From positions 32,001-96,000 of IMG/VR virus record IMGVR_UViG_3300035698_025127: a stretch of DNA of 64,000 bases; one strand, 5' to 3'. The notes beneath the pieces were generated by a model that worked only from the letters and a program-made list of their open reading frames with translations, was not told the origin of the DNA and did not search any database. Position 1 is the stretch's first letter, and each line of letters opens with the position of its first letter. The DNA is from a virus. Of this stretch, positions 18,475-54,015 are shown in pieces. Made by a program: the position numbers and the translations under genes.

Positions 18475-19180
18475 TGTGCCTCTGGAAACCATTGAATTTC
18501 CAGTAAGGGGGGTTTACAAAACAAGAGATGGTATGCTACCTAAGCGAATGTGCTATTTGCACCCAGATGCCATTAGAAGTTTTTATCAATTACAGCGTTA
18601 TACCGATTTTAAGTTACGATATTCCGACATTTTCAGAAAACCGGAATCGTCTTTTTTGGCCCGCAAGGAGAAGGGGCGAAGTGTTGCGCCGCCGGGCAAG
18701 TCTGGACATAATTATGGGGTATCATTTGACATTGATGTTGAACACGCCCTGAGATTATTTACAAATAACAAAAATCCTCGCGGCAAACGTCTTCTTGAAT
18801 TGCAAGATAAGTTTGTAATGTATGATTGGTATCCACTAAATAGCGTACGTAACAAGTTATTAAGAGACCCGGGTAGAAAACGTCAAATATCGGAAGAATG
18901 GCATTTTAATTATGGTGAAGAACCAATTAGTAGCCGTGTTGAACAGTGGTATTCGGAAGTTGAGTTAGACGTTGCCGAGTTACAAAGTATCTTGTTAGAC
19001 CTTGGATATAATGCTTTTCCGATAGACGGTATTTATGGTAAAAATACTCGAAAGGCAATGAATGCGTTTCAAAAAGATTGTAGAATCCCGAGAACAAAAT
19101 ATCCAGATCGCAATACAAAACTTATTTTAAGTTCTCTTGATGTGAAATATACTATTACTAACGGAGCAGCAAGTTATTAA
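18446..19180 (+). CDS. Endolysin: M15-family Zn peptidase plus C-terminal peptidoglycan-binding domain
   Basis: APPGKSGHNYGVSFDI (SxHxxGxxxD) and EEWHF; LQ..L..LGY....IDGIYGKNT..A...FQ (PG_binding_1). Confidence 0.85.
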   Translation: MESGNLEKINVPLETIEFPVRGVYKTRDGMLPKRMCYLHPDAIRSFYQLQRYTDFKLRYSDIFRKPESSFLARKEKGRSVAPPGKSGHNYGVSFDIDVEHALRLFTNNKNPRGKRLLELQDKFVMYDWYPLNSVRNKLLRDPGRKRQISEEWHFNYGEEPISSRVEQWYSEVELDVAELQSILLDLGYNAFPIDGIYGKNTRKAMNAFQKDCRIPRTKYPDRNTKLILSSLDVKYTITNGAASY

Positions 19181-21420
19181 TGTTTGAACATTTTGGTCCA
19201 GAAACAATTGATATTACTTATAGTACAAATATAGCATTGCAGAATCTAGGCACGGCAAGCGATTTAAAAGCCTATTTAAAAGAAGAAATAGATGAAATTA
19301 ATAAGCATTCTATTGACGTTTTAGCATTAGGCGATGACATTGAAAATCCCAATAATATTCTGTTATATTATTTTTTGGGTATGGCAAAAATACCTAATAA
19401 GTTACAGCATTATTGGAGTGAGGGTGACTTCCCTGATATTGATGCTGATTTTGCACCCGAAGGTAGAGAAGCAATTAAAAAATATCTGGAACACCGGTTC
19501 GGCAAAGAACATGTAAAATCTGTTGTAGCTTGGGGTAGAAGTAGTTTTAATAGTGCTTTTAAGGACCTTTGTGACGCGCTTGGCATTCAAAGAACATATG
19601 TAAATAAGTTTACAAAGATTTTGGATGAAGAAGAAGGCCTAGACGAAACTGAAGATAAGATTAATTATCTTAAAGATAAGTTTCCAGAAATGAAACAAAT
19701 TTTTGACAGTAATCCTAAGTTATCTGAATGGCTACCGGTTTATTATGGTGTTATTAAGAATATCGGCCAACATGCAGCGGCCATAGTTGTAAGTGGCGAT
19801 TCGCTTACAGAACATTTGCCACTTATTAAAAAGGCCAAAGGCGATGAAATTCTTATCGGTCATTCGGAATCAAGCAAGCTAAAAGAATTACAACCGCAAG
19901 GGTTTATTAAATACGACTTTCTGGGACTCAAACATGTTTCTATTTTGAGTACTGCTATTGATTATGTACAGAAAAATCACGATATAATTATTGATGAAAA
20001 ATTCTGGAATGATGTTGGTATAAAAGATACAAAGACTTTTGATTTGGCTCAATCCGGAGAATTAGATGGTATATTTCAATTTGAAGGTGGTGCCGGTTAC
20101 AAATGCATTATGGAAATTAAGCCTAATAACTTAGATGATTTATCTTTTGCTAATGCAGGTATGCGCCCGGGTGCATTAGAAGCTAAATTGCCGCAAATAT
20201 ATTACAAGAGAATGCACGGTATGAGTGACGAGAAGGCCCTTGATATCAATGGGTTATCTCAATATGGCGTTAATGAAATGTTTATTAAGTCATTGTCTAA
20301 AACATATGGATTAATTGTCTATCAAGAGCAGATTATGCAGTTCTTGCATTATGTCGGTGGTATTGATTTACCGAAGACTAATAAGGTGCGTAAAGTAATT
20401 ACAATTGAAATGTCAAAACGTCGGCCGGAACATACTGTAATTATGGATGACGTTTATACAAAGTATATGATACATACAATAGAAGCTCTTAATATGCCTA
20501 AAGAATTGGCACAGGAGTGGTGGGATAACGTAGTTGGTCAAGCTGGCTATTCTTTTAATGCTTCTCACTCATACGCATATGCCATTATTGCATATCGCGA
20601 ATTATATATTAAAGCCCATTATCCTGTGGAATTTTTTCTGGCCCTTTTGGGTCAGTCTAAAAGTACCAAAGACAAAATAGGCGAATATATTGGGGCCGCT
20701 AGACGTTTTGGCATTGAAATTTTGCCGCCCGACATAAACAAGTCAGAAATAGAGCATTCGCCCGAAGGTACAAATTCCATTAGGCTCGGCTTATCCCTTA
20801 TCAAAAGTCTTAACAAGGCATCAACTGCCAAGATTATGGCAAAGAGACCTTTTGTTTCTTACGAGGATTACCTTAAAAGAGGCCCAACTTCAATGACCGC
20901 TATCAAGGCTTTAGTTTACTCTGGCGCGTTGGATACAATGGGACGTCGCGGCAATATGATAGACATGTATGCTGAACGTGTGAAAAAGAATATCCCGCAA
21001 TGCCTAGTTGCCGATTATTTAAGGTTAGAACAAGATTATATAGGATATACGTTTAGTGCAAGTACATTTGTTGAAATACCAAACGAAGTATTAGCGATGG
21101 AACATTTAAAGCGTTTTGATGAAATTCCGGAAGTTATTATTATGGGGTTTGTTGAAAACGTCATTGAATCAAAATTAAAAAGTGGCAAAAGTGTTGGCGA
21201 ATACTATGGCATTTACGAAATAACAAATTATAGAACCAATATTACCGGCGTCAAAATGTGGGCGGAAATATACAAAGAATATGGATTCAAACTTGTGCCG
21301 GGAAGTTGGTTTAAGGCTGTTATGCAAAAAAATAAGTATGGATGGTCTTTTAAGAGAATTTTAGAACATGCAGAACATGGCATAGAAGAACTTACGGAGC
21401 GTGAAACAAAAAATGATTAA
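19180..21420 (+). CDS. dnaE: DNA polymerase III alpha (DnaE), C-terminal/catalytic part
   Basis: PDIDADF, GQHAAAIV, IKYDFLGL, GIFQFE, RPG, TYGLIVYQEQIM, YSFNASHSYAY, LPPDINKS, IRLGL; no PHP domain. Confidence 0.93.
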   Translation: MFEHFGPETIDITYSTNIALQNLGTASDLKAYLKEEIDEINKHSIDVLALGDDIENPNNILLYYFLGMAKIPNKLQHYWSEGDFPDIDADFAPEGREAIKKYLEHRFGKEHVKSVVAWGRSSFNSAFKDLCDALGIQRTYVNKFTKILDEEEGLDETEDKINYLKDKFPEMKQIFDSNPKLSEWLPVYYGVIKNIGQHAAAIVVSGDSLTEHLPLIKKAKGDEILIGHSESSKLKELQPQGFIKYDFLGLKHVSILSTAIDYVQKNHDIIIDEKFWNDVGIKDTKTFDLAQSGELDGIFQFEGGAGYKCIMEIKPNNLDDLSFANAGMRPGALEAKLPQIYYKRMHGMSDEKALDINGLSQYGVNEMFIKSLSKTYGLIVYQEQIMQFLHYVGGIDLPKTNKVRKVITIEMSKRRPEHTVIMDDVYTKYMIHTIEALNMPKELAQEWWDNVVGQAGYSFNASHSYAYAIIAYRELYIKAHYPVEFFLALLGQSKSTKDKIGEYIGAARRFGIEILPPDINKSEIEHSPEGTNSIRLGLSLIKSLNKASTAKIMAKRPFVSYEDYLKRGPTSMTAIKALVYSGALDTMGRRGNMIDMYAERVKKNIPQCLVADYLRLEQDYIGYTFSASTFVEIPNEVLAMEHLKRFDEIPEVIIMGFVENVIESKLKSGKSVGEYYGIYEITNYRTNITGVKMWAEIYKEYGFKLVPGSWFKAVMQKNKYGWSFKRILEHAEHGIEELTERETKND

Positions 21421-21874
21421 ATTTACTAATAAGGTTGATTCTATTCTAAAAAAATGGCATAGAATGCAATCTGAAAATCCACAGTTGTTTAGAATTACCA
21501 ATCAAGTAAGATTCCACAATGATGATACTATTGGTTTGATTACGTACAAATTTAAGTTTGGCAAACGCGAACTTTCTTACAATATAGTTGTTACAGAACG
21601 TGACGATGGTATATATAGTCTTGCCGGTACTATAATAAGTGCCAATAATATTCCTATTGCACGGTCACGTCTAAAATATAAGTCATTTGAAATATATATT
21701 AGAGGGGCTGATGATCTTATGAATGCGTTGTTTGTCAAAATATGGCCGGAAGTAAGATACTGGCAGGATGTAACACAGTTGAGTTGGCTGAAAATCAACA
21801 CATTTGAATTGTTATATGGTAAAGTTTCTGGATTGCTAAACAAATTAAAGAAAGAAAAGAAAGAGCGGAAATAA
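21413..21874 (+). CDS. Hypothetical protein
   Basis: Overlapping co-oriented ORF. Confidence 0.7.
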   Translation: MIKFTNKVDSILKKWHRMQSENPQLFRITNQVRFHNDDTIGLITYKFKFGKRELSYNIVVTERDDGIYSLAGTIISANNIPIARSRLKYKSFEIYIRGADDLMNALFVKIWPEVRYWQDVTQLSWLKINTFELLYGKVSGLLNKLKKEKKERK

Positions 21875-22273
21875 ATGGATAACCCAAAATTGTTATATAT
21901 GGCTTCACCTTATATGGGAAATAATCTCAACCCCCTATCTATTGAAGTAAATGTCATAGAAGCTAAATATGAAATGCGAATTATTTTACGAAACAAGAAT
22001 TTTGATAGTTATGTCGTTATTTCCCCAGTAATTATGTATGATAGGTTTGGCTTATATATTGATAATAAACCTGAGTTTTGGTATGAATATACACTTAGGT
22101 TGTTGTCACGATGTGACGCACTATGTTTTCATCAGGGGTGGGAAGTCAGCAAAGGAGTTATTGGCGAAGTTCAATTTGCTATTGACCACGATATGCCGAT
22201 ATATTATAAAGGCAAATTAATATCATTTGAAGTAGCACAAAGAATGTTAGATGAAAATGATATTACTAAATAA
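21875..22273 (+). CDS. DUF1937/DUF4406-like (nucleoside deoxyribosyltransferase-fold) protein
   Basis: YMASPY, SP, LLSRCDAL...GWEVSKGV..E...A....MPI. Confidence 0.75.
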   Translation: MDNPKLLYMASPYMGNNLNPLSIEVNVIEAKYEMRIILRNKNFDSYVVISPVIMYDRFGLYIDNKPEFWYEYTLRLLSRCDALCFHQGWEVSKGVIGEVQFAIDHDMPIYYKGKLISFEVAQRMLDENDITK

Positions 22274-22853
22274 CGAGACATACAAAAGGACTATGTTTTG
22301 TACAGATCAAGACGAACTCCATATGATAATGGAATCATTAATGGATTTAGCAGAAGAAAATGCGGACAACGACTTATATATTACTGAAATATATAAAGCA
22401 GTTTTAAATTTGCTAAATAATGAATGGTTAAAGCCGCAAGACTTTTTACACATTGTCGGTACACTCCCTACTATTTTATATGATGCATTAGAACAGGATA
22501 TACAGTCTCTTGAGGTCATTAAAGTGGTATTTGAGCATTATCCGCAATACTTATTTAACAATGAATATGAGTTAAATAGTTCTTTATTGTATTTAATGAT
22601 GATGTATAACTTGACAGACGAACAAAAGTATGCTATAATACGAGATAGCTTAGAAAATTATGTTAATTCGCGGCACCTTTTAGCAGTCTTCAGGAAATAT
22701 AACGAAGTACCGAGAGCACTTTACGAAAGTATTAAGGCCTTTTGTAATACTGTCCCGGACAAGAAACTAAAAAGCAAACTAATTAAGGCTTTTCGAAATG
22801 TTAATATTACAGAATGCAGAGACACGAGAGAGGATTATAAGACTTTTCATTGA
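22251..22853 (+). CDS. Hypothetical protein
   Basis: 200-aa ORF. Confidence 0.7.
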   Translation: MKMILLNNETYKRTMFCTDQDELHMIMESLMDLAEENADNDLYITEIYKAVLNLLNNEWLKPQDFLHIVGTLPTILYDALEQDIQSLEVIKVVFEHYPQYLFNNEYELNSSLLYLMMMYNLTDEQKYAIIRDSLENYVNSRHLLAVFRKYNEVPRALYESIKAFCNTVPDKKLKSKLIKAFRNVNITECRDTREDYKTFH

Positions 22854-23853
22854 TAAGCACTTCTCCGACATTCGATATGCTAATAATACAAGTGGGCGGT
22901 GGATTAATGTTCCAAGTCCAGAAAAGCAAAGAGATACTGATTATCGTCTCGGATTTAATATAGATGCTGGATATGTACATGATTTTACAATTTCAGAAAC
23001 ATGGTCATTCAAAGACTTTGTAGCAAGATATCTTGACATTCACCATAGTGAGGCTGAGGGTGTCATATTTGATATGGCAATTAAAGAAAAAATTATTTCA
23101 CTAAATAATATGCCAAGAAAAAAAGAAGTGGAACCTGAAGTTGCCCCACCGACTAAGCACGTAAAAATATTACCAGAAATATCAATGCCACCACATACAT
23201 TATATGTTGATATGTCAAACAAAAATGGCATTTTGGGTGCAGCTGTTTCGTATCTTGAAGGGCGAGGTATTACTCAGGAATTAGTTGATAAATTCGAAAT
23301 TCGCTATTGTATAGGAGGTCGAGATGGAGGACGAATAATTTTCCCTATTAGAGATATTAATGGTAAAATTGTCATGTATCAGGGGCGAGCGATTAGTGAC
23401 GATTTAACACCTAAATATTTATTTTCTCAGAATGGTAACAAGAAACAAGTAGTATATAATCTATATAATGTTCCAGAAAATCAGCAAATTATTATTTGTG
23501 AGGGTATATTTGATGTGATTGCCGCACATAAGGCAGGATATCATGCTGTAGCAACTTTTGGCAATTCTTTATCTTTTTTTCATCATACGAAGATAAGCAT
23601 AAGGAAACCTAGTAAACTAATCTTAGCTTACGATGTAGATGCAGCAGGTGTTTTAGGTCTAGTGAACGCAAGTAATCTGTTGGATGATTATTTTGTAATT
23701 AATTACCCTAATAATATTGAAGATTTTGGTGATGCGAATGTTGATGAAATACACAGTCTGGTTAAAAATATTGTGCCGTGGACTTCTGGAACATTTTTGC
23801 AATTTTTGCTAAAAGCTGCTTTATTGGAGCGTGAAAAGAAAAATGTCTTGTGA
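22798..23853 (+). CDS. dnaG: DNA primase (DnaG/TOPRIM)
   Basis: YLEGRGI, RIIFPI.D..G....YQGR, PKY, ICEGIFD, AVATFG, YDVDAAG. Confidence 0.9.
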   Translation: MLILQNAETRERIIRLFIDKHFSDIRYANNTSGRWINVPSPEKQRDTDYRLGFNIDAGYVHDFTISETWSFKDFVARYLDIHHSEAEGVIFDMAIKEKIISLNNMPRKKEVEPEVAPPTKHVKILPEISMPPHTLYVDMSNKNGILGAAVSYLEGRGITQELVDKFEIRYCIGGRDGGRIIFPIRDINGKIVMYQGRAISDDLTPKYLFSQNGNKKQVVYNLYNVPENQQIIICEGIFDVIAAHKAGYHAVATFGNSLSFFHHTKISIRKPSKLILAYDVDAAGVLGLVNASNLLDDYFVINYPNNIEDFGDANVDEIHSLVKNIVPWTSGTFLQFLLKAALLEREKKNVL

Positions 23854-23947
23854 TATTATTTTGTTATCTGCCGACGCTACATTAATAGGTATGGTTATTG
23901 GTATCGTTACTATATTTTATTATATATTAAAGTAAAGGCAGACAAAC

Positions 23948-24178
23948 ATGGGAGAAATTAAATTTAGGTTATTGACCAAAGCCGAAGCCGCTGTGTATGG
24001 CTTAAACGGTGGAAATCTTTATTTACAATGGACAAACGGTTTAGCCGATCCAGTTAACCTTATAGAAAGGGCAGAGAATTTTCTATGGGAACAGAAACAC
24101 ATAAGAGCAAAAGTAGACATTTTACCGATCAGACGGAACGCGGTTCTACTGAGGGCGCAGGAATTACCGATAATGTAA
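23948..24178 (+). CDS. Hypothetical protein
   Basis: 76-aa ORF. Confidence 0.55.
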   Translation: MGEIKFRLLTKAEAAVYGLNGGNLYLQWTNGLADPVNLIERAENFLWEQKHIRAKVDILPIRRNAVLLRAQELPIM

Positions 24179-24540
24179 CAAGTTTAATATCAAACGCATT
24201 ATATGGTGATAAGGGCTCAAAACTAGCGCTAAAAGCAGTTTTTATGGATTCGCTTTTAAAACTTCAGAAACATAAAAGTATAAATATTGTCGATTATGTT
24301 GAATTATTATTTGTATTAGTTTCATCTATCGACACATCTCGTACGTTATCTTTAGAGGAGGGCAAAGAAACTCCGCCTCAAGTACCAAAATCAGCTTTAA
24401 TTATGCATAAAGGTGAGCCGTGCTTACAAGTATGGTCATTACCTGATGCTTCGGACAGTTATGTCCGTAAATTAACTGATCTTGAAAATGCAATTTTTAT
24501 TAGACAACAAGGAAAAAATAATGAAGAAAGCGCCGATTAA
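24085..24540 (+). CDS. Hypothetical protein (start uncertain)
   Basis: 151-aa ORF. Confidence 0.6.
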   Translation: MGTETHKSKSRHFTDQTERGSTEGAGITDNVTSLISNALYGDKGSKLALKAVFMDSLLKLQKHKSINIVDYVELLFVLVSSIDTSRTLSLEEGKETPPQVPKSALIMHKGEPCLQVWSLPDASDSYVRKLTDLENAIFIRQQGKNNEESAD

Positions 24541-25000
24541 CGTATATAAAGAGTTATTTCCCGCAATGAAAAAGAAAATGCAGGAACATGAATTTTCTAC
24601 CTCAAAATACTATATTCGTCTAGGAATTGAAGACGGGAAAAAGACTATTTATCCTATTCTAAAGGATAAAGAGAATGGTGAAGTAACTGATACTGATATC
24701 ATGAATATTGACAGTGAAACAGCGGTATGCTTAGTTATTGACTCTGCACAGATTAGATTATATGAAGGAACTGTCATTGGTCCGACTGACGCTTTTATGG
24801 AAATTTTTGAAAATTCACTAATTACTCGTAAAAGTCGAGACAGTTTCAAAAAACAGTATGCGGAAAGTGCAAATGTGCCTATAACTACTGTTGATTTTTG
24901 TGCAGAACATAATATCGCACATCCTAAAAGTTTCGGGTGTCCTCAATGCAATGAAAATTCTCTAAAACAAGCCGAAAAGCTAAAGAATACAGTAAGTTAA
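24521..25000 (+). CDS. Hypothetical protein with C-terminal CxxH...CxxC motif
   Basis: AAGGA RBS; CAEH...CPQC. Confidence 0.7.
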   Translation: MKKAPINVYKELFPAMKKKMQEHEFSTSKYYIRLGIEDGKKTIYPILKDKENGEVTDTDIMNIDSETAVCLVIDSAQIRLYEGTVIGPTDAFMEIFENSLITRKSRDSFKKQYAESANVPITTVDFCAEHNIAHPKSFGCPQCNENSLKQAEKLKNTVS

Positions 25001-25476
25001 TGAATTTAACAGAATATATTGACAACCCGCATAAAATATCAGAATTAAAAATACACGATCTAGTTGTTTTTAATAGTATTGATAATAGTGGCTATGAATG
25101 GGTACAAATATTTGCCACACCGTGGTATGATATTCGTTATAATCACATAGTTATACCATTTTTGCGGAAACATATTCTGGATTATGTCTTTGTAAGTTCT
25201 AAAAATGTCAATTTACAAGAGTGTATTTCTGATACAGATATTAGTGAAATATACAGAATTATTGGAAGTTGGCTGACAGTTGTAAAAAACGAGATCTATT
25301 TAAAGACAATATTCAACAAGTTGACGAGGACACTTCGAGATATTAACATAAATGACGATGTTATATTAGAAATAGTTAGATTATTTGAGGCAGACCAATT
25401 TGCCAGACAAAAGCGTAAATTTGAAGAAAGGATTCACCATGGCGCAAAAGCGAATAAAAAAAGTAGATTTCGATAG
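25000..25476 (+). CDS. Hypothetical protein
   Basis: TAATG coupling. Confidence 0.7.
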   Translation: MNLTEYIDNPHKISELKIHDLVVFNSIDNSGYEWVQIFATPWYDIRYNHIVIPFLRKHILDYVFVSSKNVNLQECISDTDISEIYRIIGSWLTVVKNEIYLKTIFNKLTRTLRDININDDVILEIVRLFEADQFARQKRKFEERIHHGAKANKKSRFR

Positions 25477-26308
25477 AGATTATTTCAACTGGAGGGATGA
25501 CAAAACAAATACTATTCGTCAGGAAGTTTATGCTAATAACTTGTATGAAATATCAGAACAAGTATTAATAGACATGCGCATATGGGATTTTAAAAAGGCA
25601 AAATTTTTACCTGAGCTTGTCTGCAAGGCAGTTTATGCCGGGGATAAATGTAGGCCTGAAGCTAATAATTCAAGTCCTTTTAGCTATATATATGCTGCAC
25701 TATTTAAAACAGTTTTGTCACTAAATAAGGTGCATATCGAAGAATTAAAGCATAGTTCTATTACAAGTGTAGACGACGAATTGGAGCGATATTTAGAATC
25801 GAAAGCCAATAATGGCATTGATTTGTCAGAATATATTGAGGCAACTAAACTTAATTGCGCGATAGATTCTTATATTGCATTAAAAGAAAACTATCGTACT
25901 GACATGTTTGATAGTACGTTTATACAGTGTTGCAAAAATATGGCGGCTTGCGGTCTATCGCGCGAGGAAAGCGATTTAATTGTTAGCAATTTTAATGTAT
26001 CTGATAGCCCGCTTTTTGAAAAAATGCCACATTTAAGTAGCAATTTTATGTATAAGTTAGAAGTCTTGTCGGATTTAATAAATAAGTTAGAGGCAACTAA
26101 TTTTACAACAATGACAACTACTGCCAATGTTTTAGCACGATATAATTCTCTTATACGTAAAGGATATATAAAAATTCGGAAAATTGAAACATTGCACAGA
26201 AACCTTTCCAAGTATGCCGAAAGTAGGGGATTTACACTTATACAGCGTAAATACAATGATAGTTATTTGTTATATTTAGAATTTAATATGGAGAATTTAA
26301 ATGTTTAG
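25439..26308 (+). CDS. Putative phage sigma factor (gp55-like late sigma)
   Basis: DKCRPEANNSSPFSYIYAAL resembles the gp55 region-2 'KF.PEK..NPFAYFT' pattern; weak similarity only. Confidence 0.45.
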   Translation: MAQKRIKKVDFDRDYFNWRDDKTNTIRQEVYANNLYEISEQVLIDMRIWDFKKAKFLPELVCKAVYAGDKCRPEANNSSPFSYIYAALFKTVLSLNKVHIEELKHSSITSVDDELERYLESKANNGIDLSEYIEATKLNCAIDSYIALKENYRTDMFDSTFIQCCKNMAACGLSREESDLIVSNFNVSDSPLFEKMPHLSSNFMYKLEVLSDLINKLEATNFTTMTTTANVLARYNSLIRKGYIKIRKIETLHRNLSKYAESRGFTLIQRKYNDSYLLYLEFNMENLNV

Positions 26309-26732
26309 TATATTAATTTCGTGGTCAATATTGGCTGCTGTAGTGTTTATTGTTTTGTCAGTTTATTTTGTAAAAGAAGTCAGGGCAAAATCTGTTATTA
26401 AAGTTCAATATGATCAAATTGTATTGAAAAACATGCTTAGTTATTTGACACAAGTAGCTTTGTTAAGCCAAACGAGAATACAAAATATCGTCATGGAATC
26501 AGAAAATGCACTTAAAGTATTTCTTGCAAATAACTTAAATGCTGGATATCAAGCATTAACTGATGGTACCGGATTTGAAACTCACGAACCAACATTGTCA
26601 AATGAAGAAATAGTTACAACTCTGGAAAAAATTCGGGAACATAGCGTACGTATAGCTTATACAAGACTCGGATTTGGACTGTGGTTTGTCCAGTTTGCCA
26701 TTTTGCTAACTTTATTTGTAATAGGAACATAA
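26301..26732 (+). CDS. Membrane protein (N- and C-terminal TM helices)
   Basis: Two hydrophobic stretches; GGAG RBS. Confidence 0.7.
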   Translation: MFSILISWSILAAVVFIVLSVYFVKEVRAKSVIKVQYDQIVLKNMLSYLTQVALLSQTRIQNIVMESENALKVFLANNLNAGYQALTDGTGFETHEPTLSNEEIVTTLEKIREHSVRIAYTRLGFGLWFVQFAILLTLFVIGT

Positions 26733-29330: not shown

Positions 29331-29333
29331 ATA

Positions 29334-29555: not shown

Positions 29556-29564
29556 GAGAACATT

Positions 29565-43982: not shown

Positions 43983-43992
43983 GGTAAACATA

Positions 43993-44742: not shown

Positions 44743-44743
44743 T

Positions 44744-45043: not shown

Positions 45044-45078
45044 GCATCTAACCCTTCCAATACGAGATTAATTAAAAC

Positions 45079-45107
45079 TTGACATAAAAGCCAAAGTGTG
45101 GTATAGT
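45079..45107 (+). promoter_or_regulatory. Sigma70-type early promoter
   Basis: TTGACA-17 nt-TATAGT, extended TG. Confidence 0.85.
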
Positions 45108-45145
45108 ATTCGTGAATGAACAAACCTTTTCACGGAGTACAGTAT

Positions 45146-46051: not shown

Positions 46052-46292
46052 AAACTACGGAATTGACAATATTAAACATGTAGGCCATTATTACCATGAT
46101 CATTATATTGTTATTCTAGATGATATAGGAGAGCAAGAGCAAAATCTTGAAATTGAACCCGGAATGCTTGCCGTTATTACGACGGATGGAGATAGGATTA
46201 TGTCGGAAATTCTCGACATTGAAACATTTTGCGGAACGTTTCAGGACAAACATGATGACCAATTTAGAATCTACTTTTTCGGAAAGGCATAA
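46041..46292 (+). CDS. Hypothetical protein
   Basis: 83-aa overlapping ORF (GTG). Confidence 0.55.
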   Translation: MNTKNYGIDNIKHVGHYYHDHYIVILDDIGEQEQNLEIEPGMLAVITTDGDRIMSEILDIETFCGTFQDKHDDQFRIYFFGKA

Positions 46293-46296
46293 TGAA

Positions 46297-46752
46297 ATGT
46301 ATTCATGTGATAGTAACCATCAAAAGCGTATTATGATTGTTAGGGCGATTAACCAGGCAATTGTCCCATTTAACGTTCATAATAGAAATCAAATAGCAAT
46401 GCCTTTGCTATATGTTTATACACGATTTAATCGTGATTTTGAAGAAATTTATCCTGATTTTATATATAACAAGTGTAATGTTGTTAGTCAAAAAGCAACA
46501 GATGATATAAATAAGTCTGTACTGTCAACTACTACAATGTATACAAAATATACAAAAGATATTATGAAAATAAAACATTTTTGTGCTGATACTGGCATAG
46601 GGATGACAACATTATCGCAAGTATTATTTCAACTAGAAGCATCAAGAAAATCGCCTATTTTAGACAATATGTTACCAGAAGACAATGATAAAGTATTACT
46701 ATTTTTATGGGACATGGAATATAAACGTCCTGCTACACAAACCATTAACTAA
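46297..46752 (+). CDS. Hypothetical protein
   Basis: ORF, likely ATG at 46297. Confidence 0.6.
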   Translation: MYSCDSNHQKRIMIVRAINQAIVPFNVHNRNQIAMPLLYVYTRFNRDFEEIYPDFIYNKCNVVSQKATDDINKSVLSTTTMYTKYTKDIMKIKHFCADTGIGMTTLSQVLFQLEASRKSPILDNMLPEDNDKVLLFLWDMEYKRPATQTIN

Positions 46753-46769
46753 CAAAGGAACAAAACGAA

Positions 46770-47309
46770 ATGATCTACAACATGGACAGATTATATGCCG
46801 GGCTACATTATTGTGGGGAAATTCGCGGCATTTTCAGGCTTTACAATACTTTTTATTTAGCAAAACACTTGACCGGTTATCCACTTGTTTATGAATGGAT
46901 TCCAAGTAGCCGTGGTGCAAGTAATGGCCCGTCAAGCTATTATCTTGGAAACGATATTATTTTCTTGATTAGGCGCGGCTTTGTCAGTCAAGATATTTTG
47001 TCAGACCGTTCTGTGTCATTTAAAGCCATTAATAACGAATATTTCAAAAAATCCAAAGACATTGAAAAGGAAACGGCATATTACAAGAAATTTTTTAAAA
47101 TTATTAGTGGTATGGACTGGCAAGTTGTAGCACTGGCAGCAGCTTATATTGCAGAACGTAATAAGCCGGACAACGATCTTGCACTGGTTAATAGTATTGT
47201 GGCCGAACGTAAACGTAGTATTTATACGACTGAAAGGATTGTCCAGGCAATTAACTTTATTAGTGAGATAGAAACAAAATCTATCTATGCAAAACCCGAA
47301 GATAAATAG
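46770..47309 (+). CDS. YwgA/DUF4065 (Panacea/SocA)-like winged-helix protein
   Basis: EI.G..RL....YL......Y.W......GP.S..L..DI..L...GFV pattern. Confidence 0.45.
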   Translation: MIYNMDRLYAGLHYCGEIRGIFRLYNTFYLAKHLTGYPLVYEWIPSSRGASNGPSSYYLGNDIIFLIRRGFVSQDILSDRSVSFKAINNEYFKKSKDIEKETAYYKKFFKIISGMDWQVVALAAAYIAERNKPDNDLALVNSIVAERKRSIYTTERIVQAINFISEIETKSIYAKPEDK

Positions 47310-47318
47310 AGGAACAAA

Positions 47319-47906
47319 ATGCAGGATTTTAGTCGCTATATAACACCAACAATGGCGGGGTATTACCATGAAAGAACAGCACGGCATATTAATCTTGTAA
47401 AGCAAAATGGATATAACGTTATCAAACATTTGCCAATGAATATGAAAATGAAAAACGAATTGGCGGCAAATTTGCAAAAACACGATATGTCAAAATTTGA
47501 AGATCCGGAAAAAACACCATACATCTTGATTACATGGCGATACCATGTTTTAGAGGACGAATTTAGACGTTTGAATCTTACAAAAGAAATATTAGCAGAT
47601 ATGTCTGATATTACAGAATATCATGTTAAAAATAACAAACATCACCCTGATTATTGGGATGACACTATAACAAGTAATTTTCTAAACCCTAAAGATAGAG
47701 ATGCGCCGGGTGAAAAAGTTATCAATGCAACAAAAATGCCACTTGTAAGCATTATCGAAATGGTTTGTGATTGGTTTGCAGTTGGTCAGGAACGTGGAAA
47801 TACCGCAAGAGAATGGGCTGGCCGTAGTATCGGAATACGCTGGGCATTTACAGAGCCACAAAAAATCTTTATTTACAATATAATTGACATTTTGGAAAAT
47901 ATCTAA
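47319..47906 (+). CDS. DUF5662 (HD-like) protein
   Basis: RHI..V, HDMSKF..PE, H...NKHHPDYW, MP...IIEMVCDW.A. Confidence 0.8.
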   Translation: MQDFSRYITPTMAGYYHERTARHINLVKQNGYNVIKHLPMNMKMKNELAANLQKHDMSKFEDPEKTPYILITWRYHVLEDEFRRLNLTKEILADMSDITEYHVKNNKHHPDYWDDTITSNFLNPKDRDAPGEKVINATKMPLVSIIEMVCDWFAVGQERGNTAREWAGRSIGIRWAFTEPQKIFIYNIIDILENI

Positions 47907-48238
47907 TGAAAAAGATACAATTATATGACAAATTAGATATCCTTTTCTATAATGATGGCATTCAGATTTTTATGGCCACAGAATTTACAAATAGAAGGTT
48001 TCTTGGTGTTTTGATAGATTCTGGCGGCAAAGATAATACTTATTTGATTATGGAACCTGACATTATTGCTTTTAATGAATTTTTAGCAAGTAAAAGAGAC
48101 TTATTAAGTTTAATGATGGGTTCATCTATGCATCAGGCAACTATAAATACCGATAAAAAACATTTTTGCTTACATACTACCTACAAGAAGATAAATAAGA
48201 AACTGTTGCCGGAGAAAGGGCAAACAAAATGGAACTAG
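47906..48238 (+). CDS. Hypothetical protein
   Basis: TAATG coupling. Confidence 0.65.
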   Translation: MKKIQLYDKLDILFYNDGIQIFMATEFTNRRFLGVLIDSGGKDNTYLIMEPDIIAFNEFLASKRDLLSLMMGSSMHQATINTDKKHFCLHTTYKKINKKLLPEKGQTKWN

Positions 48239-48633
48239 AGAACTTAGTAACCGATATAACGGAAGCTAAGAAGTATGCAAAACCTGCAAACTTTATGCCA
48301 CCGTTAAAAAAAACAGCAGCAACTTATTCGGAGATTTTAGCAAGTGCCTCCAAAGCCGCTGCACTGGAATATGCAAAAACAAAAATAAACCCTAAAGTAT
48401 ATTGTGCAGTCTTGCTAAACTATGGCATTGGCGCTAAAGTAACAATTGGGAAACTTGCAGACGATGTTAATTTTATTTCACACCTCCAATTGGAGGTATT
48501 AGGAAGAGAATATGACGTCCGTCCTGTTGATTCAATGACTATTTATGTTGGGTATCCATCTGCTTCTATTGGTAGAATCCCGGATATGATTCTCAAAGAA
48601 ATTCTAAACGCCCCGATATGGCAACTTGTATAA
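48229..48633 (+). CDS. Hypothetical protein
   Basis: 134 aa. Confidence 0.7.
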   Translation: MELENLVTDITEAKKYAKPANFMPPLKKTAATYSEILASASKAAALEYAKTKINPKVYCAVLLNYGIGAKVTIGKLADDVNFISHLQLEVLGREYDVRPVDSMTIYVGYPSASIGRIPDMILKEILNAPIWQLV

Positions 48634-48642
48634 GGATTAAAT

Positions 48643-49278
48643 ATGTTTTTTACAAAGTTATTTTTCAAATTTAAGCATTGGTTTTTTCGCGCATGGACAC
48701 TAGACTATCAAGCACGGGAAAGGGATTATTTCGGTACACCACACTGGCATTCATTAAGTCCGAGTTCTGCAAATATTATTATGTCAAAAATAAAATGGAC
48801 AAAAGACGGATTTAAGGAATTGTGGGATGCATCCCACCATCCATACTATTCCGATTATATTATTAATTCCATTTTGTTTACCCAAAATGTTGATATCGAA
48901 GCTGCAATCAAAATTGCAAAAAAAAGTTCATCTGAATTTTCGACTATGATGCAGCCAGTAAAAACCGGAGTCGGACAACCGGAAGGCTCATTTGATTGTG
49001 ACGATTATGCTCTTTGGGCAGCAACGGCAATTCATTCACGCTATAAACCTATTGTCCTGTCCGTATTTTTCAAAACAGGCTGGTGGCCATGGCAAATTGG
49101 CGGACATGCTGTATGCATATATACATACAATAAGAAATTCTATCACATTGGAAATTGGGGGAAGTCTAAGGGCTATAAAACTGCAAAAGCACTAATTGAC
49201 GATATTGTTAGCAAAACTGGCAATAAAAAATTAGTGGCGACGTATACCTATAAAATTAGCGACATTACAAACGATTAA
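48643..49278 (+). CDS. Transglutaminase/papain-like Cys-His protein
   Basis: FDCDDYA and GHAVCIY motifs. Confidence 0.6.
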   Translation: MFFTKLFFKFKHWFFRAWTLDYQARERDYFGTPHWHSLSPSSANIIMSKIKWTKDGFKELWDASHHPYYSDYIINSILFTQNVDIEAAIKIAKKSSSEFSTMMQPVKTGVGQPEGSFDCDDYALWAATAIHSRYKPIVLSVFFKTGWWPWQIGGHAVCIYTYNKKFYHIGNWGKSKGYKTAKALIDDIVSKTGNKKLVATYTYKISDITND

Positions 49279-49286
49279 GAGGAATC

Positions 49287-49889
49287 ATGGAAAACAAAAT
49301 TTTTGTAGAAGTTGAAGGCGTGGATTATTCTGGCAAAACCACTTTGATGGGGCACTTAGTAAATAGACTTGGTATTGTAGACCATTATTTCACAAGAGAA
49401 CCATACAAAGGAGAATACCGCAATCTACTTTTAAATGCACCTTTGAAGCGCGATGAAGCTCTGGAAATTTTTGTAAAGGATCGCATAGAACACGTCAAAA
49501 GGATGAATACGTTGCCACATAAATATATCTGGTGCGACCGATATCTTCTCTCGACACTAGTTTATCAAACGGGGACTGAAAAAGAAATTGTGGAAATTAT
49601 GGAAATGCATAAAGAGGAAAATCTTCCACTCCCAGATGTTCTGGTTTATTTATTCTGCTCAAAAGAAGTTGCCCGGCAAAGAGCATCAGAACGGCCAGAA
49701 ACTAACCACTATGACGAACACCACCGAGAGAATGCTAAAAGGTATAGGAAAGTTTTATCAAGCGATTCTACGCCATATTACAAGACAATTCCGGTACTGG
49801 AGTTCGATACAAGCGTACATGGGCCGGAAGCAATTGCCAAACATGTTTGGGATTCGGTCAAGAAGAAAATAGTATTCGCAAATGAATAA
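49287..49889 (+). CDS. tmk: Thymidylate kinase
   Basis: VEGVDYSGKTT, TREP, DR.EH, CDRYLLSTLVYQ, PDVLVYL. Confidence 0.92.
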   Translation: MENKIFVEVEGVDYSGKTTLMGHLVNRLGIVDHYFTREPYKGEYRNLLLNAPLKRDEALEIFVKDRIEHVKRMNTLPHKYIWCDRYLLSTLVYQTGTEKEIVEIMEMHKEENLPLPDVLVYLFCSKEVARQRASERPETNHYDEHHRENAKRYRKVLSSDSTPYYKTIPVLEFDTSVHGPEAIAKHVWDSVKKKIVFANE

Positions 49890-49921
49890 AGAAAAAGCCC
49901 CGATTAAGGGGCTTTTTCTTT
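49889..49921. terminator. Bidirectional terminator between convergent units
   Basis: AAGAAAAAGCCCC-gattaa-GGGGCTTTTTCTT. Confidence 0.85.
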
Positions 49922-50064
49922 GCTCAATTATACTTTTTTACATATACGTTTCAAGTTTGTCAATATGTTCCTGAAGTCGCCGGCATTCAAGCTGCTATTT
50001 TGCTAATTAGCATGCACACAAAGCCACAAACTCATTTTTTGTCAACTCAAAGACAATATTGTCT

Positions 50065-50550
50065 TTAGTCCAAGTGTTGATGCATGTTAAAATCCACATC
50101 GGCAATGCTATCACGGACAGCATTGTATGCAGCGGCTTTAAGATTCATTCCTTGTTCCATGGGCCCATTCACCAAGGGTCCAAGCCACAAAGTATATCCG
50201 GTTCTGTAGCTGTTTTTCCGAATGGCAATACCGCCATATTCGCAGACGAACTCAAAATAGCCGGAACGTTTTTCGTTCGCAACTTTTTTAAATTCGCTGA
50301 TGAACTTGCGATTTTTGCCGGAGAACTCTAGCCAAACAAAGCCACACAGTTCGCGAAGCCGACCGACAACGCCACCAATTTCGCCGCCTAATTCGTGGAT
50401 ACTTTGGCTAGTAGTGTTTAGCCCGATATCCTCGACAACGGCATAAGCAGGGCCGGCTTTAAGAAGGACAACGATATGATTATGGGCTGCAATTTTAGCG
50501 GCTTTGGTGGCTTCAACGATCATATCTTTGAATGTATTTTTCATTGTCAT
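50065..50550 (-). CDS. Hypothetical early protein
   Basis: ORF just downstream of minus-strand promoter. Confidence 0.75.
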   Translation of the reverse strand: MTMKNTFKDMIVEATKAAKIAAHNHIVVLLKAGPAYAVVEDIGLNTTSQSIHELGGEIGGVVGRLRELCGFVWLEFSGKNRKFISEFKKVANEKRSGYFEFVCEYGGIAIRKNSYRTGYTLWLGPLVNGPMEQGMNLKAAAYNAVRDSIADVDFNMHQHLD

Positions 50551-50587
50551 TCTCTGTGTTAGTAGCTTGTCAATCAATCATAAGTAA

Positions 50588-50615
50588 ACTATAGCATAGA
50601 AAATCATAATGTCAA
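50588..50615 (-). promoter_or_regulatory. Sigma70-type early promoter (repeat family)
   Basis: TTGACA-16 nt-TATAGT with TG; near-identical to 62315-62342. Confidence 0.75.
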
Positions 50616-50647
50616 GGAAAAAATGAAAAAAACTATTATACATTACT

Positions 50648-50893
50648 TTATCTATCTCCTTGCATAAGGTCTTTAAATTCGGCCTGTGTAATAACATTTA
50701 CGTCTGTAACACATTTTTCTTTACCGAAAAATTCTCGAAAAGTTTTTCGGTTACGCTGGAGTTTTGCATATTTTTGTGCAACTTTTAAAGTATACGGACC
50801 TGCAAAATTATGAAAAAACTCTCCGCTATGTTTATTTGAACGTAATGCCATTTTAATGTGCACTATGTAATTTTTTTTAATATGTTGCGTCAT
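50648..50893 (-). CDS. Hypothetical early protein
   Basis: AAGGA RBS. Confidence 0.65.
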   Translation of the reverse strand: MTQHIKKNYIVHIKMALRSNKHSGEFFHNFAGPYTLKVAQKYAKLQRNRKTFREFFGKEKCVTDVNVITQAEFKDLMQGDR

Positions 50894-50928
50894 TTTTTTC
50901 CTTTGTTATACATTTTCATGTCAAATTC

Positions 50929-51234
50929 TTAACAAGATACATTCATTATGTGGGGTAAATCCTGCTGCATCAAAACAGCACAAAGACTGTATTTTTCAAC
51001 GCCCAGAATGGTATTTAACATTTCGTTAATAGCCTTTTGAGGGCTTTTTCTTTTGACACCGAAAAGCTGGCATGGTTCAAACACGCTTGGCGCATAAATG
51101 CCATAATAAAACCCATCGGTTTTTCTGCTGATTCTGCCAAGTTCTCTTGACAATTCTTTTTTGTTACAAGGAACATATGTAATAACAATACTGTCCTTAA
51201 TAACACCGCCCTGAATGAATATTGTGTTATTCAT
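50929..51234 (-). CDS. Hypothetical early protein
   Basis: GGAG RBS before MNNTIF. Confidence 0.65.
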   Translation of the reverse strand: MNNTIFIQGGVIKDSIVITYVPCNKKELSRELGRISRKTDGFYYGIYAPSVFEPCQLFGVKRKSPQKAINEMLNTILGVEKYSLCAVLMQQDLPHIMNVSC

Positions 51235-51598
51235 TGTGTACTCCAAAATTCCTTTCACAGTGCGAAGCACTTGAAATACTATCATAATTGTAAATTGTGT
51301 GAAAGCACTTGTATTCGCCGAGATCATCTATATGAACACAATTCAAAATAATTTTGGAATTATCCCATTTTGTAACCTTGCACACCCCATTGCCAGAAAA
51401 AATCTTTTCCGGTACTTCGAGGGAACTTACCTTGACAGGATTGGCTCGATCTTTTCCCGCTGCGATCAAAAGCGTTCCGAATACTCCAGTCACTGCCAAT
51501 AGCACAAAAATAATCATGGAATATGCAAACCATTTTGAAACTTTTTCTTTTTTGCTGCCATACAAATTCATTTTGTAAAGACTTTTAATTTTCGGCAT
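51227..51598 (-). CDS. Hypothetical single-TM membrane protein
   Basis: AAGGA RBS; hydrophobic helix. Confidence 0.7.
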   Translation of the reverse strand: MPKIKSLYKMNLYGSKKEKVSKWFAYSMIIFVLLAVTGVFGTLLIAAGKDRANPVKVSSLEVPEKIFSGNGVCKVTKWDNSKIILNCVHIDDLGEYKCFHTIYNYDSISSASHCERNFGVHNE

Positions 51599-51629
51599 GT
51601 TTTTTCCTTTTTCGTTTAAGTTAGGTTTT

Positions 51630-51658
51630 AATATATCACAAACCCCTAACTTTGTCAA
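51630..51658 (-). promoter_or_regulatory. Sigma70-type early promoter
   Basis: TTGACA-17 nt-TATATT with TG. Confidence 0.7.
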
Positions 51659-51704
51659 GTTTTAAATATAAAAAATAATCGTACGAATATATATATGGAG
51701 GTAC

Positions 51705-51980
51705 ATGATGAATGACAATTTAATTTATATTATACTCGGTGGATTTGCTTTTGTTGGATTTAGCTCTTTGGGGCTAGGGAAATTATTATCAAAACTTTTT
51801 GGTAATAAAAGAAAACAAAAAAATACTCATAGCAATCCAAGATTACCAAAATACTCTAACCATAAAAAGGAATACGAAAAAGATGAAGACACTATTGATA
51901 AAACAGTGGGCAATCTTGCTATTGACAGTTTACTTGACGTCATTGATGCCTCAATTAGTAATGGCAAGCGAAAAAAATAA
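51705..51980 (+). CDS. N-terminal TM protein (possible lysis/spanin-like component)
   Basis: GGAGG RBS, N-terminal TM; overlaps next gene. Confidence 0.6.
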   Translation: MMNDNLIYIILGGFAFVGFSSLGLGKLLSKLFGNKRKQKNTHSNPRLPKYSNHKKEYEKDEDTIDKTVGNLAIDSLLDVIDASISNGKRKK

Positions 51981-52311
51981 GCACTCGGAAACTTTTAAAA
52001 TTCCAGGTGTTTGCCACACTATGATATGCGGAGAGGAAAAATGCGAATGTATTATTCCCGAGAAATTTGAGTATGCTGTTACAGAAGACGTCATTAGGCA
52101 GTTTGTCAAAGAGAAAATGGGCAAAGAAGCGTGCAAAAATGAACTTGGGGACTGTACAAGCAATTTACAGGACTGTAAAACTCGGCCAGCAGAGACAAAA
52201 GTTATTGTAACGAATGAAATTCCGAATTGGGTATGGTATGTTTTTGCGGCCGTGGCAGTTGTTACGCTCGTAGGTGGGGGATATGCTGGATACAAATTGG
52301 GTCAGTTATAA
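51883..52311 (+). CDS. Exported Cys-rich protein with C-terminal TM (possible spanin-like)
   Basis: AAGGA RBS; signal-like N-terminus, 7 Cys, C-terminal TM. Confidence 0.65.
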   Translation: MKTLLIKQWAILLLTVYLTSLMPQLVMASEKNKHSETFKIPGVCHTMICGEEKCECIIPEKFEYAVTEDVIRQFVKEKMGKEACKNELGDCTSNLQDCKTRPAETKVIVTNEIPNWVWYVFAAVAVVTLVGGGYAGYKLGQL

Positions 52312-52470
52312 ATGTCAGTATTCTTTTATATTCACTGTCTTATTATCATTTTTATGATAATTGGTTTTCTGTGGTCATTAAAAAAAGATCACTTTTCGTA
52401 CGTAATACTTTGGTTATATATTATTGGCTTTGTTTTCACTATATTTTGTGGAGTTTTCTGGCATGGATAA
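52312..52470 (+). CDS. Small two-TM protein (52 aa), not in ORF track
   Basis: Starts directly after upstream TAA; MSVFFYIHCLIIIFMIIGFLW...WHG. Confidence 0.55.
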   Translation: MSVFFYIHCLIIIFMIIGFLWSLKKDHFSYVILWLYIIGFVFTIFCGVFWHG

Positions 52471-52645
52471 AAAACATTTAATTATGTATACATTGGGCAA
52501 TAACATTTTGCACGATCCAACAATTTCTTTACTTCCGCCCGATATTCTAAAAGAATTCGCTATTAGAATTTTGCGGTCCCTTGACGTTAATATTGATGGT
52601 GACATTGATATCGACAAACTTTTCGAGGAACTGGAACTTAGTTAA
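52463..52645 (+). CDS. Hypothetical protein
   Basis: GGAG RBS; TAATG-coupled to the DnaE N-terminal gene. Confidence 0.6.
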   Translation: MDKKHLIMYTLGNNILHDPTISLLPPDILKEFAIRILRSLDVNIDGDIDIDKLFEELELS

Positions 52646-54015
52646 TGACAATTAACTGGACTCATTTACATACACATTCGGTGTATTCCGTTCGCGATGG
52701 GTTATCGTCTATAAATGATATCGTCAATAAGGCTAAAGAACATGGATTTTCAAGCGTTGCTTTGACTGACCACGGCACGGTTGCTGGTAGTTTTCAGTTC
52801 ATAAATAGTGCTAAAAGCGCCGGAATCAAACCTATAATCGGTTCAGAGCTCTATATCGAAGCTGTACCAAGGAAATTGATTAAAAACCGCTCTGAGATAG
52901 ACCACAGTCGTTATAAGAACGAATACAAAAAGTCAATCAATAGGATGCTGCGGTCCAATTACCATTTAGTTGCTCTTGCACAAAACTATCAGGGATATAA
53001 AAACCTTCTTAAAATTACAAATAATTCTATAGAAGAGGGCTATTTTTACAGGCCCTTGACTACAAAAAAAGTTCTTTTTGAAAATAGCCAGGGAATTTGT
53101 GCTTCTTCGGCATGTTTTGGTGGTGAAATAGCCCGGATGCTTTATGCTGGCAATACAGCACAAGCTGAATATGCTTTATCGGAATATAAAGAGGCTTTTC
53201 GGGGCAGATTCGCCATAGAGCTAATGATAATTAACTTCCCAAGACAAAAACAGATAAATGAAGAACTAATAAGATTAGCACATAAAACTAATACCCCTAC
53301 AATTATTACTTGTGATTCTCATTACACTAATCAGAGTGAATATGACTTGCACAGAATTCTGCTGAATATTGATAATGTACGGCAGGGCATCAAGTTAGAA
53401 GACATTAGTAATGGCTGGGAATTCGACGCCACAGACTTGTTTTATAAGTCCTTAAAACAAATTATGGAAGACTGGGAAAAGCAACATAAAAGTGATATAT
53501 TTACAAAAGAAGTATTGCTTAATTCCATTCGAAATACGTCAAATATTATAGATTCTGTTGAAGAATATACACTCCAACACGTTCCTAGGCTTCCGACGTA
53601 CGATAATGGTTACGAGGTGTTAAAGAAACGCTGTGTTACCGGGCTATATAATATGATACAAAACGGTATTATTGAAAAAACAAGAGGTTTTGAATATCAA
53701 AAAAGGCTAATATATGAATTAAAAACCATCAAACAGTTAAATGCAGTCAGCTATATGCTACTGTTCGCCGATGTTACAAATTTTTGTGATAATCCTTTTG
53801 ACAAAACAATATGGAGCGGGCATGAAATACCCGAAGAAATACGAGATTTAATTCCGTCAAGCGGAACTATTCCGCGTGGCACAGGTCGTGGATCTGCCGG
53901 TGGTTCTTTAGTTGCTTACTTATTAGGCATAACCAAAGGTGTTGACCCGCTTAAATTTGATTTACTATTTGAACGCTTTCTTGACATTAATCGTGTCCCG
54001 AAAATGAAGTTCTAA
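52645..54015 (+). CDS. dnaE: DNA polymerase III alpha (DnaE), N-terminal PHP domain plus first half of palm
   Basis: HLHTHSVYSVRDG, ALTDHG, KPIIGSE, YHLVALA.N..GYKNL, SAC..GE, DSHY, RL.YEL..I, GRGSAGGSLVAYLLGIT..VDPL.FDLLFERFL...R then stop. Confidence 0.93.
   Translation: MTINWTHLHTHSVYSVRDGLSSINDIVNKAKEHGFSSVALTDHGTVAGSFQFINSAKSAGIKPIIGSELYIEAVPRKLIKNRSEIDHSRYKNEYKKSINRMLRSNYHLVALAQNYQGYKNLLKITNNSIEEGYFYRPLTTKKVLFENSQGICASSACFGGEIARMLYAGNTAQAEYALSEYKEAFRGRFAIELMIINFPRQKQINEELIRLAHKTNTPTIITCDSHYTNQSEYDLHRILLNIDNVRQGIKLEDISNGWEFDATDLFYKSLKQIMEDWEKQHKSDIFTKEVLLNSIRNTSNIIDSVEEYTLQHVPRLPTYDNGYEVLKKRCVTGLYNMIQNGIIEKTRGFEYQKRLIYELKTIKQLNAVSYMLLFADVTNFCDNPFDKTIWSGHEIPEEIRDLIPSSGTIPRGTGRGSAGGSLVAYLLGITKGVDPLKFDLLFERFLDINRVPKMKF

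Follow-up and report, generated by a model that had tools for sequence, protein, structure and literature searches.

A full-size DnaE-type polymerase encoded by two distant, intein-free genes of a salt-lake phage, with an active site predicted to form between two chains

Introduction

Bases 32001-96000 of the 119,932-base IMG/VR record IMGVR_UViG_3300035698_025127, a viral record classed as linear with a CheckV completeness estimate of 55%, constitute the 64-kb stretch of DNA analysed here (hereafter, the window). Two of its genes, located at 19180-21420 and 52645-54015, each encode a part of a DnaE-type (C-family) DNA polymerase, with the motifs of the active site distributed between the two products. 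A first-pass annotation, based on the sequence alone, had proposed a non-covalent heterodimer, and we consider this likely: the window would encode a DnaE-type polymerase consisting of two separately translated, non-covalently associating proteins, whose active site would exist only in the heterodimer.

One DnaE core divided between two genes

The gene located at 52645..54015 (+ strand) encodes a protein of 456 amino acids (aa), referred to here as the N-half, which comprises a PHP domain and the nucleotide-binding part of the palm. The PHP domain spans residues 7-194 (52663..53226, + strand; PF02811, E 1.2e-40), and the palm segment containing the GRGS and FERF motifs spans residues 408-451 (53866..53997, + strand), corresponding to positions 57-99 of the 260 positions of PF07733; in the alignment, residues 409-451 pair with residues 418-459 of the Thermus aquaticus Pol III alpha subunit. 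The protein terminates with ...FERFLDINRVPKMKF, its last residues being PKMKF, and is followed by a TAA stop codon, so that the initial description of this gene as PHP plus the palm's N-terminal portion, stopping after the FERF segment, was accurate. The ATG codon overlaps the stop codon of a 73-aa upstream open reading frame (ORF) in the sequence TAATG, and downstream of the TAA a ribosome-binding-like GGAGA sequence precedes the next ORF.

The PHP domain carries all nine candidate metal ligands (H9, H11, D18, H43, E68, H107, C157, D224, and H226), located at columns that are invariant or nearly so among the N-half relatives and occupied by the same residues in T. aquaticus. We take these nine positions to be the metal ligands of proofreading-competent DnaEs, and the PHP domain of the N-half, with its candidate set complete, is likely a proofreading nuclease. 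Immediately before GRGS, an insertion of about 23 residues (residues ~382-404; 53788..53856, + strand) was delimited in the alignment of relatives; it is carried by the window protein and its four closest N-half relatives, and is absent from canonical DnaE and from the relatives P0006 and P0007.

The second gene, located at 19180..21420 (+ strand), encodes the 746-aa C-half, which contains an N-terminal extension, the part of the palm bearing the catalytic aspartates, the thumb, the fingers, a helix-hairpin-helix (HhH) domain, and about 150 C-terminal residues. Its ATG codon also overlaps the stop codon of an upstream gene, endolysin-like in this case, in the sequence TAATG. The extension covers residues 1-84 (19180..19431, + strand), as delimited by clade alignments and a profile search. 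It is followed by PDIDADF at residues 85-91 (19432..19452, + strand), aligned to T. aquaticus residues 462-468, with D86 and D88 falling on the two catalytic aspartates of PDxD, and by KYDFLGL at residues 244-250 (19909..19929, + strand), which includes D246, aligns with the T. aquaticus enzyme, and is invariant in the C-half relatives. From the DnaE structure papers we assume D86, D88, and D246 to be the catalytic aspartates. The fingers (residues 254-409; 19939..20406, + strand; PF17657, E 5.5e-25) and the HhH DNA-binding domain (residues 511-589; 20710..20946, + strand; PF14579, E 2e-17) were identified by Pfam. PDIDADF at residue 85, KYDFLGL, and the fingers were thus where the first-pass annotation had placed them, but the OB fold that it also assigned to this protein was not detected, since no OB-fold family (PF01336 or other) matched the last 152 residues (595-746) at E <= 1 in Pfam.

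Both ORFs are open throughout and lie on the + strand, with the C-half first and 31,224 bases between them. The PF07733 family is divided at 99|100 between the two proteins, C-half residues 83-249 corresponding to its positions 100-260. In phrog_405 the division falls at 440|441, the N-half taking up positions 41-440 and the C-half positions 441-944. Relative to the T. aquaticus Pol III alpha subunit the break falls at 459|460 (approximately residue 398 in E. coli numbering), and N-half residues 3-451 together with C-half residues 83-594 tile residues 5-459 and 460-954, reconstituting the canonical core without gap or overlap. The alignment to canonical DnaE that had been suggested as a check therefore yields an exact tiling, and the complementarity of the two matches cannot be due to chance. 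As a result of the break, the active-site motifs are divided, with GRGS and FERF on the N-half and PDxD and KxDFLGL on the C-half; the PHP domain, palm motifs, fingers, and HhH domain of a C-family polymerase are all present, but not on a single polypeptide. The earlier statement that the C-half resumes at the break holds for the family match, which restarts at position 100 of PF07733, but not for the protein as a whole, in which the conserved 84-residue extension precedes PDIDADF.

Absence of splicing signals at the break

No intein or Hint family of Pfam was found on either half at E <= 0.01, and no Pfam family, intein and Hint included, matched the extension alone at E <= 1. The same scans detected intein or Hint families in the relatives P0126 and P0127, which indicates their sensitivity. 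At the break, the N-half ends in ..PKMKF-stop and the C-half reads ..EGDF|PDID, with neither an HN dipeptide nor a C/S/T nucleophile. No Rfam family, including group I and group II introns, scored above threshold in the 64-kb window, nor did any tRNA, and a permissive Rfam scan of the two break regions returned a single chance-level small RNA (E 0.94). The lack of intein signatures and of intron-like RNA claimed at the outset was borne out by these scans. In addition, the stop codon of the N-half was bridged, with 0 differences and no joint, by contigs from three sequencing runs not flagged as a possible source of the record (X5, record 9, covering 53780-54053; X6, record 15, 53829-54310; X8, record 21, 53898-54048).

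Conservation of the break among relatives

Relatives of the N-half were sought among proteins of 250-798 residues, and the best 120 were listed. The six closest among the matches listed (P0002-P0007; 37-72% identity, 406-477 aa) all terminate 4-7 residues past the conserved R450 of the motif ..FERFL.(I/V)NR.., with tails such as PKMKF and PKMKL, so that the break point recurs in relatives, as the first-pass annotation had suggested looking for. GRGS and FERF are invariant in their alignment. Four more distant contrast proteins read through the break into MPDID.DF.

Relatives of the C-half (P0121-P0124; 40-71% identity) lack a PHP domain, begin with an extension of about 80 residues, and retain PDID and KYDFLGL. 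The extension follows the pattern ..LG-..EL..YL.EE....NPNN.L.YYL....P..L.H.W.EGD[FY], located immediately before PDID. An extension profile built from 9 sequences and run against 1.84 billion representative proteins (E <= 0.001) matched 33 proteins, in 31 of which the match lay at the protein N-terminus and in none of which it lay inside a PHP-bearing protein; the remaining two were a low-complexity repeat protein and a protein without the matched stretch. All eight full-length matches inspected consisted of the extension, then PDxD, then the rest of the C-half. The extension is therefore the mark of a clade whose enzyme is split in every case seen, and the split is, judging from these relatives, an old and conserved trait of that clade rather than a peculiarity of this genome.

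The best matches among GenBank phages are about 30% identical, and those to the C-half begin at residue 83-84; one match (H11) is a single 3132-base coding sequence. Two scans of IMG/VR gave 159 loci, three contigs being represented twice. The gene is contiguous across FERF..PDxD in 131 of these loci and interrupted, with both parts in the locus, in 16 (gaps of 0.3-6.8 kb); two of the latter are questionable: L038 and L039 lack a stop, and their 23-base gap is probably an alignment-edge effect. Nine loci contain the C-part alone, with 3.8-10 kb of upstream flank, and three the N-part alone, one of them (L009) being cut by the locus end and the other two (L067, L073) having C-parts further on. 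A sister group (L063, L067, and G003-G005) has the opposite order to the window, with the N-half leading and 3-5 kb before the start of the C-half, and in L034 and L040 one small ORF separates the halves.

The separation of the halves was also considered in close C-half relatives. Five metagenome loci offered 4-10 kb of flank, and in none of them did an N-half lie beside the C-half (tblastn). The IMG/VR copy (G001, identical to L092) of the contig of one such relative, L084, comprises 138,362 bases at 70% completeness and contains the C-part of PF07733 at 102253-102747, and neither a PHP domain nor the N-part of PF07733 was found anywhere in it. Since G001 holds only the C-half, its N-half would lie more than ~35 kb away, in the missing part. 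Wide separation of the halves is, on this sequence evidence, a trait of the clade and no accident of the present genome.

Several relatives are interrupted at the same loop by other means. In P0125 and P0126 an insertion directly follows PDID, that of P0126 containing a Hint domain (PF13403), and P0127-P0129 start with a C-intein-like piece ending in ..SHN before C, P0127 having the intein-splicing domain PF14890. Judging by these proteins, interruptions are concentrated in the loop that surrounds the catalytic aspartates, a hot spot of which the window version is the intein-free kind. In one lineage, the catalytic loop is broken in at least three different ways (P0125-P0129; L087, 8775-12572; L088, 7178-10534). 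Another phage DnaE, in L037 (11191-11915), is broken within PDxD itself, ending in ..SPPDK and resuming, after a 155-aa ORF, with ..IDTDFDY. Several proteins are encoded in the 4.4-4.7 kb between the halves in L063 (8931-13314) and L067 (11591-16023); in each case one of them has a CxxxCxxC motif near its start and looks radical-SAM-like by eye.

Predicted association of the halves and alternative readings

To model the complex, the 456 residues of the N-half (7-row alignment) were combined with residues 1-530 of the C-half (5-row alignment) in three runs. The score was 0.86 in all three, and 0.00 in the best of three controls. The corresponding score mark was met by 58 of 80 solved complexes and by 2 of 110 mismatched pairs, counts that apply only roughly here because our own alignments were used. 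Contact agreement between the runs was at least 91%, and the predicted local distance difference test (pLDDT) of the partner at least 80; the C-half alone, modelled by AlphaFold2 with only a 5-row alignment, had a mean pLDDT of 46. The confident interface places N-half residues 408-450, from GRGS to FERF, against C-half residues 84-107 and 239-258, the strands bearing the aspartates, which is the contact that a composite active site requires. N-half insertion residues 384, 396, 398-399, and 402-404 also lie in the confident modelled interface, in contact with C-half helix 94-107, and the 23-residue insertion may thus be a clade-specific clasp for non-covalent assembly.

In the proposed enzyme, the N-half would contribute the PHP domain and the nucleotide-binding palm segment with GRGS and FERF, and the C-half would contribute D86, D88, and D246, the thumb, the fingers, and the HhH DNA-binding domain. 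We infer physical association and polymerase activity of the halves from their sequences. Conservation of the motifs in relatives and the passing complex model speak for the non-covalent heterodimer put forward by the first-pass annotation, but its support from modelling is qualified by the fact that the single-chain enzyme has been solved, so that the pass may merely recall that fold. Further points weigh against this interpretation. Binding and polymerisation by the two proteins are predictions. Residues 1-83 of the extension fall outside the confidently placed contacts, and the extension of the window's own group, taken alone, gave no significant hhalign match to canonical DnaE (E 0.2) or to its own N-half clade (E 0.34). 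Two features that would bear on processivity were not seen: the 120-kb record yielded no beta-clamp gene, and no OB fold was detected. Finally, as the record is 55% complete, another polymerase or an intact dnaE could lie in the remainder. Like the extension, the final six N-half residues lie outside the confident contacts, which for neither segment is evidence of a lack of contact.

A rather unlikely alternative, compatible with the heterodimer, assigns the split DnaE an accessory or repair function, with the genome being copied by another enzyme, such as a family B polymerase encoded in the missing 45%; a role of this kind has been proposed for the minimal split Pol III alpha of group 2.2 jumbo phages. 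The incompleteness of the record leaves space for a second polymerase, the window has a T4-like set of a UvsX-like recombinase, a gp32-type single-stranded DNA-binding protein (SSB) match, and helicases, and a minimal split version described in other phages accompanies a family B polymerase, as far as the available text of that report goes (PMC7824862). However, neither a family A (PF00476) nor a family B (PF00136) polymerase was found in the 120-kb record, the C-half heads a primase-DnaB-SSB module with conserved synteny, and, in contrast to the minimal version, PHP, fingers, and HhH make this a full-size enzyme. The strongest form of the opposite view, namely that the sole replicative polymerase of this ~200-kb salt-lake myovirus is an obligate heterodimer gated by its assembly, in which the extension would sit as a placeholder on the docking surface and keep the free C-half soluble and inactive until displaced by the N-half, appears distinctly improbable to us.

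It is less probable still that the halves no longer cooperate, the N-half being a lone PHP nuclease or phosphoesterase and the C-half being inactive or paired otherwise. The intact PHP ligand set would permit an activity of the N-half on its own, and the genes are distant, in blocks parted by the - strand ORFs at 50065-51658. Nevertheless, GRGS and FERF, for which we know of no use outside a polymerase active site, do not vary among N-half relatives, even at 37% identity, the C-halves likewise show no variation in the catalytic aspartates, and the complex model passes its controls. Covalent joining of the halves, whether through RNA trans-splicing or through a protein-splicing element that escaped recognition, is very improbable. 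It could be suspected from the intein pieces that P0126 and P0127-P0129 host in the same loop, but the approximately six N-half residues past the conserved arginine could not accommodate an intein part, the extension runs through ..EGDF into PDID with no HN or C/S/T nucleophile, no intein family was detected in the halves (E <= 0.01) or in the extension alone (E <= 1), no group I or group II intron or other Rfam family was present, and each gene has its own coupled start and an ordinary stop. An assembly artefact or a recently broken pseudogene, conceivable in a linear fragment assembled from a metagenome and named at the outset as a possible refutation, has a negligible probability and was excluded, given the open ORFs, the run contigs X5, X6, and X8 that cross the stop unchanged, and the break kept in 37-72% identical relatives from other assemblies.

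Origin of the extension

The extensions of three sister-group proteins, compared by hhalign with 45 single-chain DnaEs, gave a match with E 6.3e-5 and a probability of 64%, in which columns 17-71 of the extension align to canonical columns 312-376 (..RL..EL.VI..MGF..YFLIV...GRGSAAGSLVAY.LGIT..DP). A pooled profile of 12 extensions, including that of the window, aligned to the same canonical place over 62 columns (hhalign E 0.002). The window-group extension is tied to the sister group because they share a profile. Judged from these profile comparisons, the extension is probably a degenerate duplicate of the palm segment located at the end of the N-half.

One locus, L051, consists of a single 1097-aa ORF in which about 128 residues separate FERF from PDxD. 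By eye, this insert is similar to the extensions and tails found in split forms; the locus could represent a re-fusion rather than an intermediate. The most likely order of events is duplication followed by fission. The nucleotide-binding palm segment of a single-chain gene would first have undergone partial duplication, and fission between the two palm copies would then have left the working copy on the N-half. The copy left on the C-half would have decayed into the 84-residue extension, with NPNN where GRGS stood, and in the window clade the genes would subsequently have moved far apart, with the C-half keeping its place as the first gene of the replication module.

Relation to known polymerases

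Compared with single-chain DnaEs of known structure (T. aquaticus, 2HPI/3E0D; Escherichia coli, 2HNH/5FKU; Mycobacterium tuberculosis, 5LEW/7PU7), the window enzyme has the same domains in the same order, but it consists of two polypeptides and carries the 84-residue extension and the 23-residue insertion before GRGS. The cyanobacterial DnaE-N/DnaE-C pair also derives from two distant genes; there, however, split-intein parts splice the chains and the break lies after the fingers, in contrast to the palm break without intein found here. The first-pass annotation was correct in stating that the cyanobacterial site differs, as a cyanobacterial DnaE-N partner (P0139, 876 aa) includes the PHP domain, PF07733, and the fingers. 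The intein-interrupted relatives P0125-P0129 belong to the same lineage and carry their interruptions no more than a few residues from the loop that is split here, whereas the window genes lack any Hint, intein, or C-intein-like piece.

The closest published case is that of the group 2.2 jumbo phages, in which, according to the accessible parts of Iyer et al. (2021; PMC7824862), a 'minimal' Pol III alpha is split into an N-terminal NTP-binding and a C-terminal Mg2+/template-binding protein. As presented there, this enzyme has only the core nucleotidyltransferase and the template-binding domain and no other Pol III domains, and is encoded by distant genes without an intein that are proposed, as a sequence-based prediction, to reconstitute one enzyme. 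Going by those parts of the text, the window enzyme is cut at the same subdomain boundary and its genes are likewise far apart. On a comparison by description only, it is distinguished by its full size (PHP, palm, thumb, fingers, and HhH) and by the vestigial duplicate segment of its C-half; moreover, the minimal split form coexists with a family B polymerase, whereas no other polymerase was seen in the 120-kb, 55% complete record of the window.

The PhiKZ phage provides a comparison from another polymerase family. Its split family B polymerase, consisting of DNAP-N and DNAP-C, forms a stable 1:1 complex by experiment, as given in the consulted portion of PMC13648687; it resembles the window enzyme in being a separately encoded two-protein phage polymerase and differs in belonging to family B rather than C. 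It is the replicative enzyme of a jumbo phage and, in a family other than C, a functional precedent.

In the literature found, from which figures and supplements (those of PMC7824862 included) lay outside the search, no full-size DnaE was described as being split without an intein. The available portions of PMC12926913, PMC10674732, and PMC3919608 contain nothing on an intein-free split DnaE, and the literature found on 'split DnaE' is about split inteins. Nor did the literature found include an experimentally proven two-chain C-family replicative polymerase with a shared active site. As far as the accessible text of PMC7824862 allows comparison, this kind of split is already in print, and the full-size, PHP-bearing form with a vestigial extension is a new variant of it.

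As a one-genome curiosity, the split would add little. A full-size, PHP-bearing DnaE whose chain is broken three residues ahead of the catalytic aspartates is a natural test case for the folding and docking of the palm, and it allows asking whether the proofreading and synthesis modules are exchangeable. The series from a single chain with an insert, through adjacent halves, to distant halves would also offer a clean example of how duplication and decay can lead to the fission of a gene for an essential enzyme.

Genomic context

Almost all ORFs of the window are on the + strand. All 24 public runs listed with part of 52645-54302 are labelled as salt lake metagenome, and in 8 of them at least half of the sampled words of this region were present. 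A tail-sheath homologue (7856-12568; phrog_23) and a baseplate hub (59456; PHROG scans) point to a contractile-tailed phage.

Rather than a cassette inserted between adjacent halves, a whole replication and nucleotide-metabolism module, recognised from PHROG scans and the ORF list, occupies the ~31 kb between them (21401..52644, + strand), and the order of the halves is reversed. Upstream of the C-half lie a ThyX-like gene (16803) and, directly adjacent and translationally coupled to it, the endolysin-like gene at 18446-19180 (VanY/peptidoglycan-binding), whose product has a peptidoglycan-binding domain and a VanY-like peptidase match below the Pfam cut-off. Downstream, a 157-aa ORF precedes the primase (22798), followed by a DnaB-like helicase (26733), an SSB with a gp32-type match (29959), a UvsX-like recombinase (31572), a helicase (32852), an exonuclease (36775), two DNA methyltransferases (37533-38378 and 38989-39681), and a DHH phosphoesterase (45116), as assigned by PHROG scans; a short block of ORFs on the - strand (50065-51658) precedes the N-half block. 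The relative L084, whose C-half is 41% identical, keeps the same order, from the ThyX-like gene through the endolysin-like gene, the C-half, and the small ORF to the primase. The endolysin-like neighbour, which thus recurs there, is an odd partner for a replication module.

Consensus scans detected promoter-like and terminator-like sites at chance level (9 against 12.6 +/- 3.4 and 32 against 25.6 +/- 4.8 in shuffled sequences, respectively), and the 'regulatory switch' suggested for the split polymerase by the first-pass annotation is an idea.

Other features of the window deserve mention. The gene at 57209-58528 encodes a homologue of tRNA nucleotidyltransferase (CCA-adding enzyme), yet ARAGORN found zero tRNA genes in the 64-kb window. 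In the replication region, a 1034-residue ORF (40878-43982) has no PHROG match and a sub-threshold VanY match at residues 853-912. The tail-sheath match of the 1570-residue product of 7856-12568 is confined to residues 1008-1569, with no PHROG match in the first ~1000 residues, and the protein is unusually big for a sheath protein. The two methyltransferase genes, both matching phrog_67, lie ~600 bases apart.

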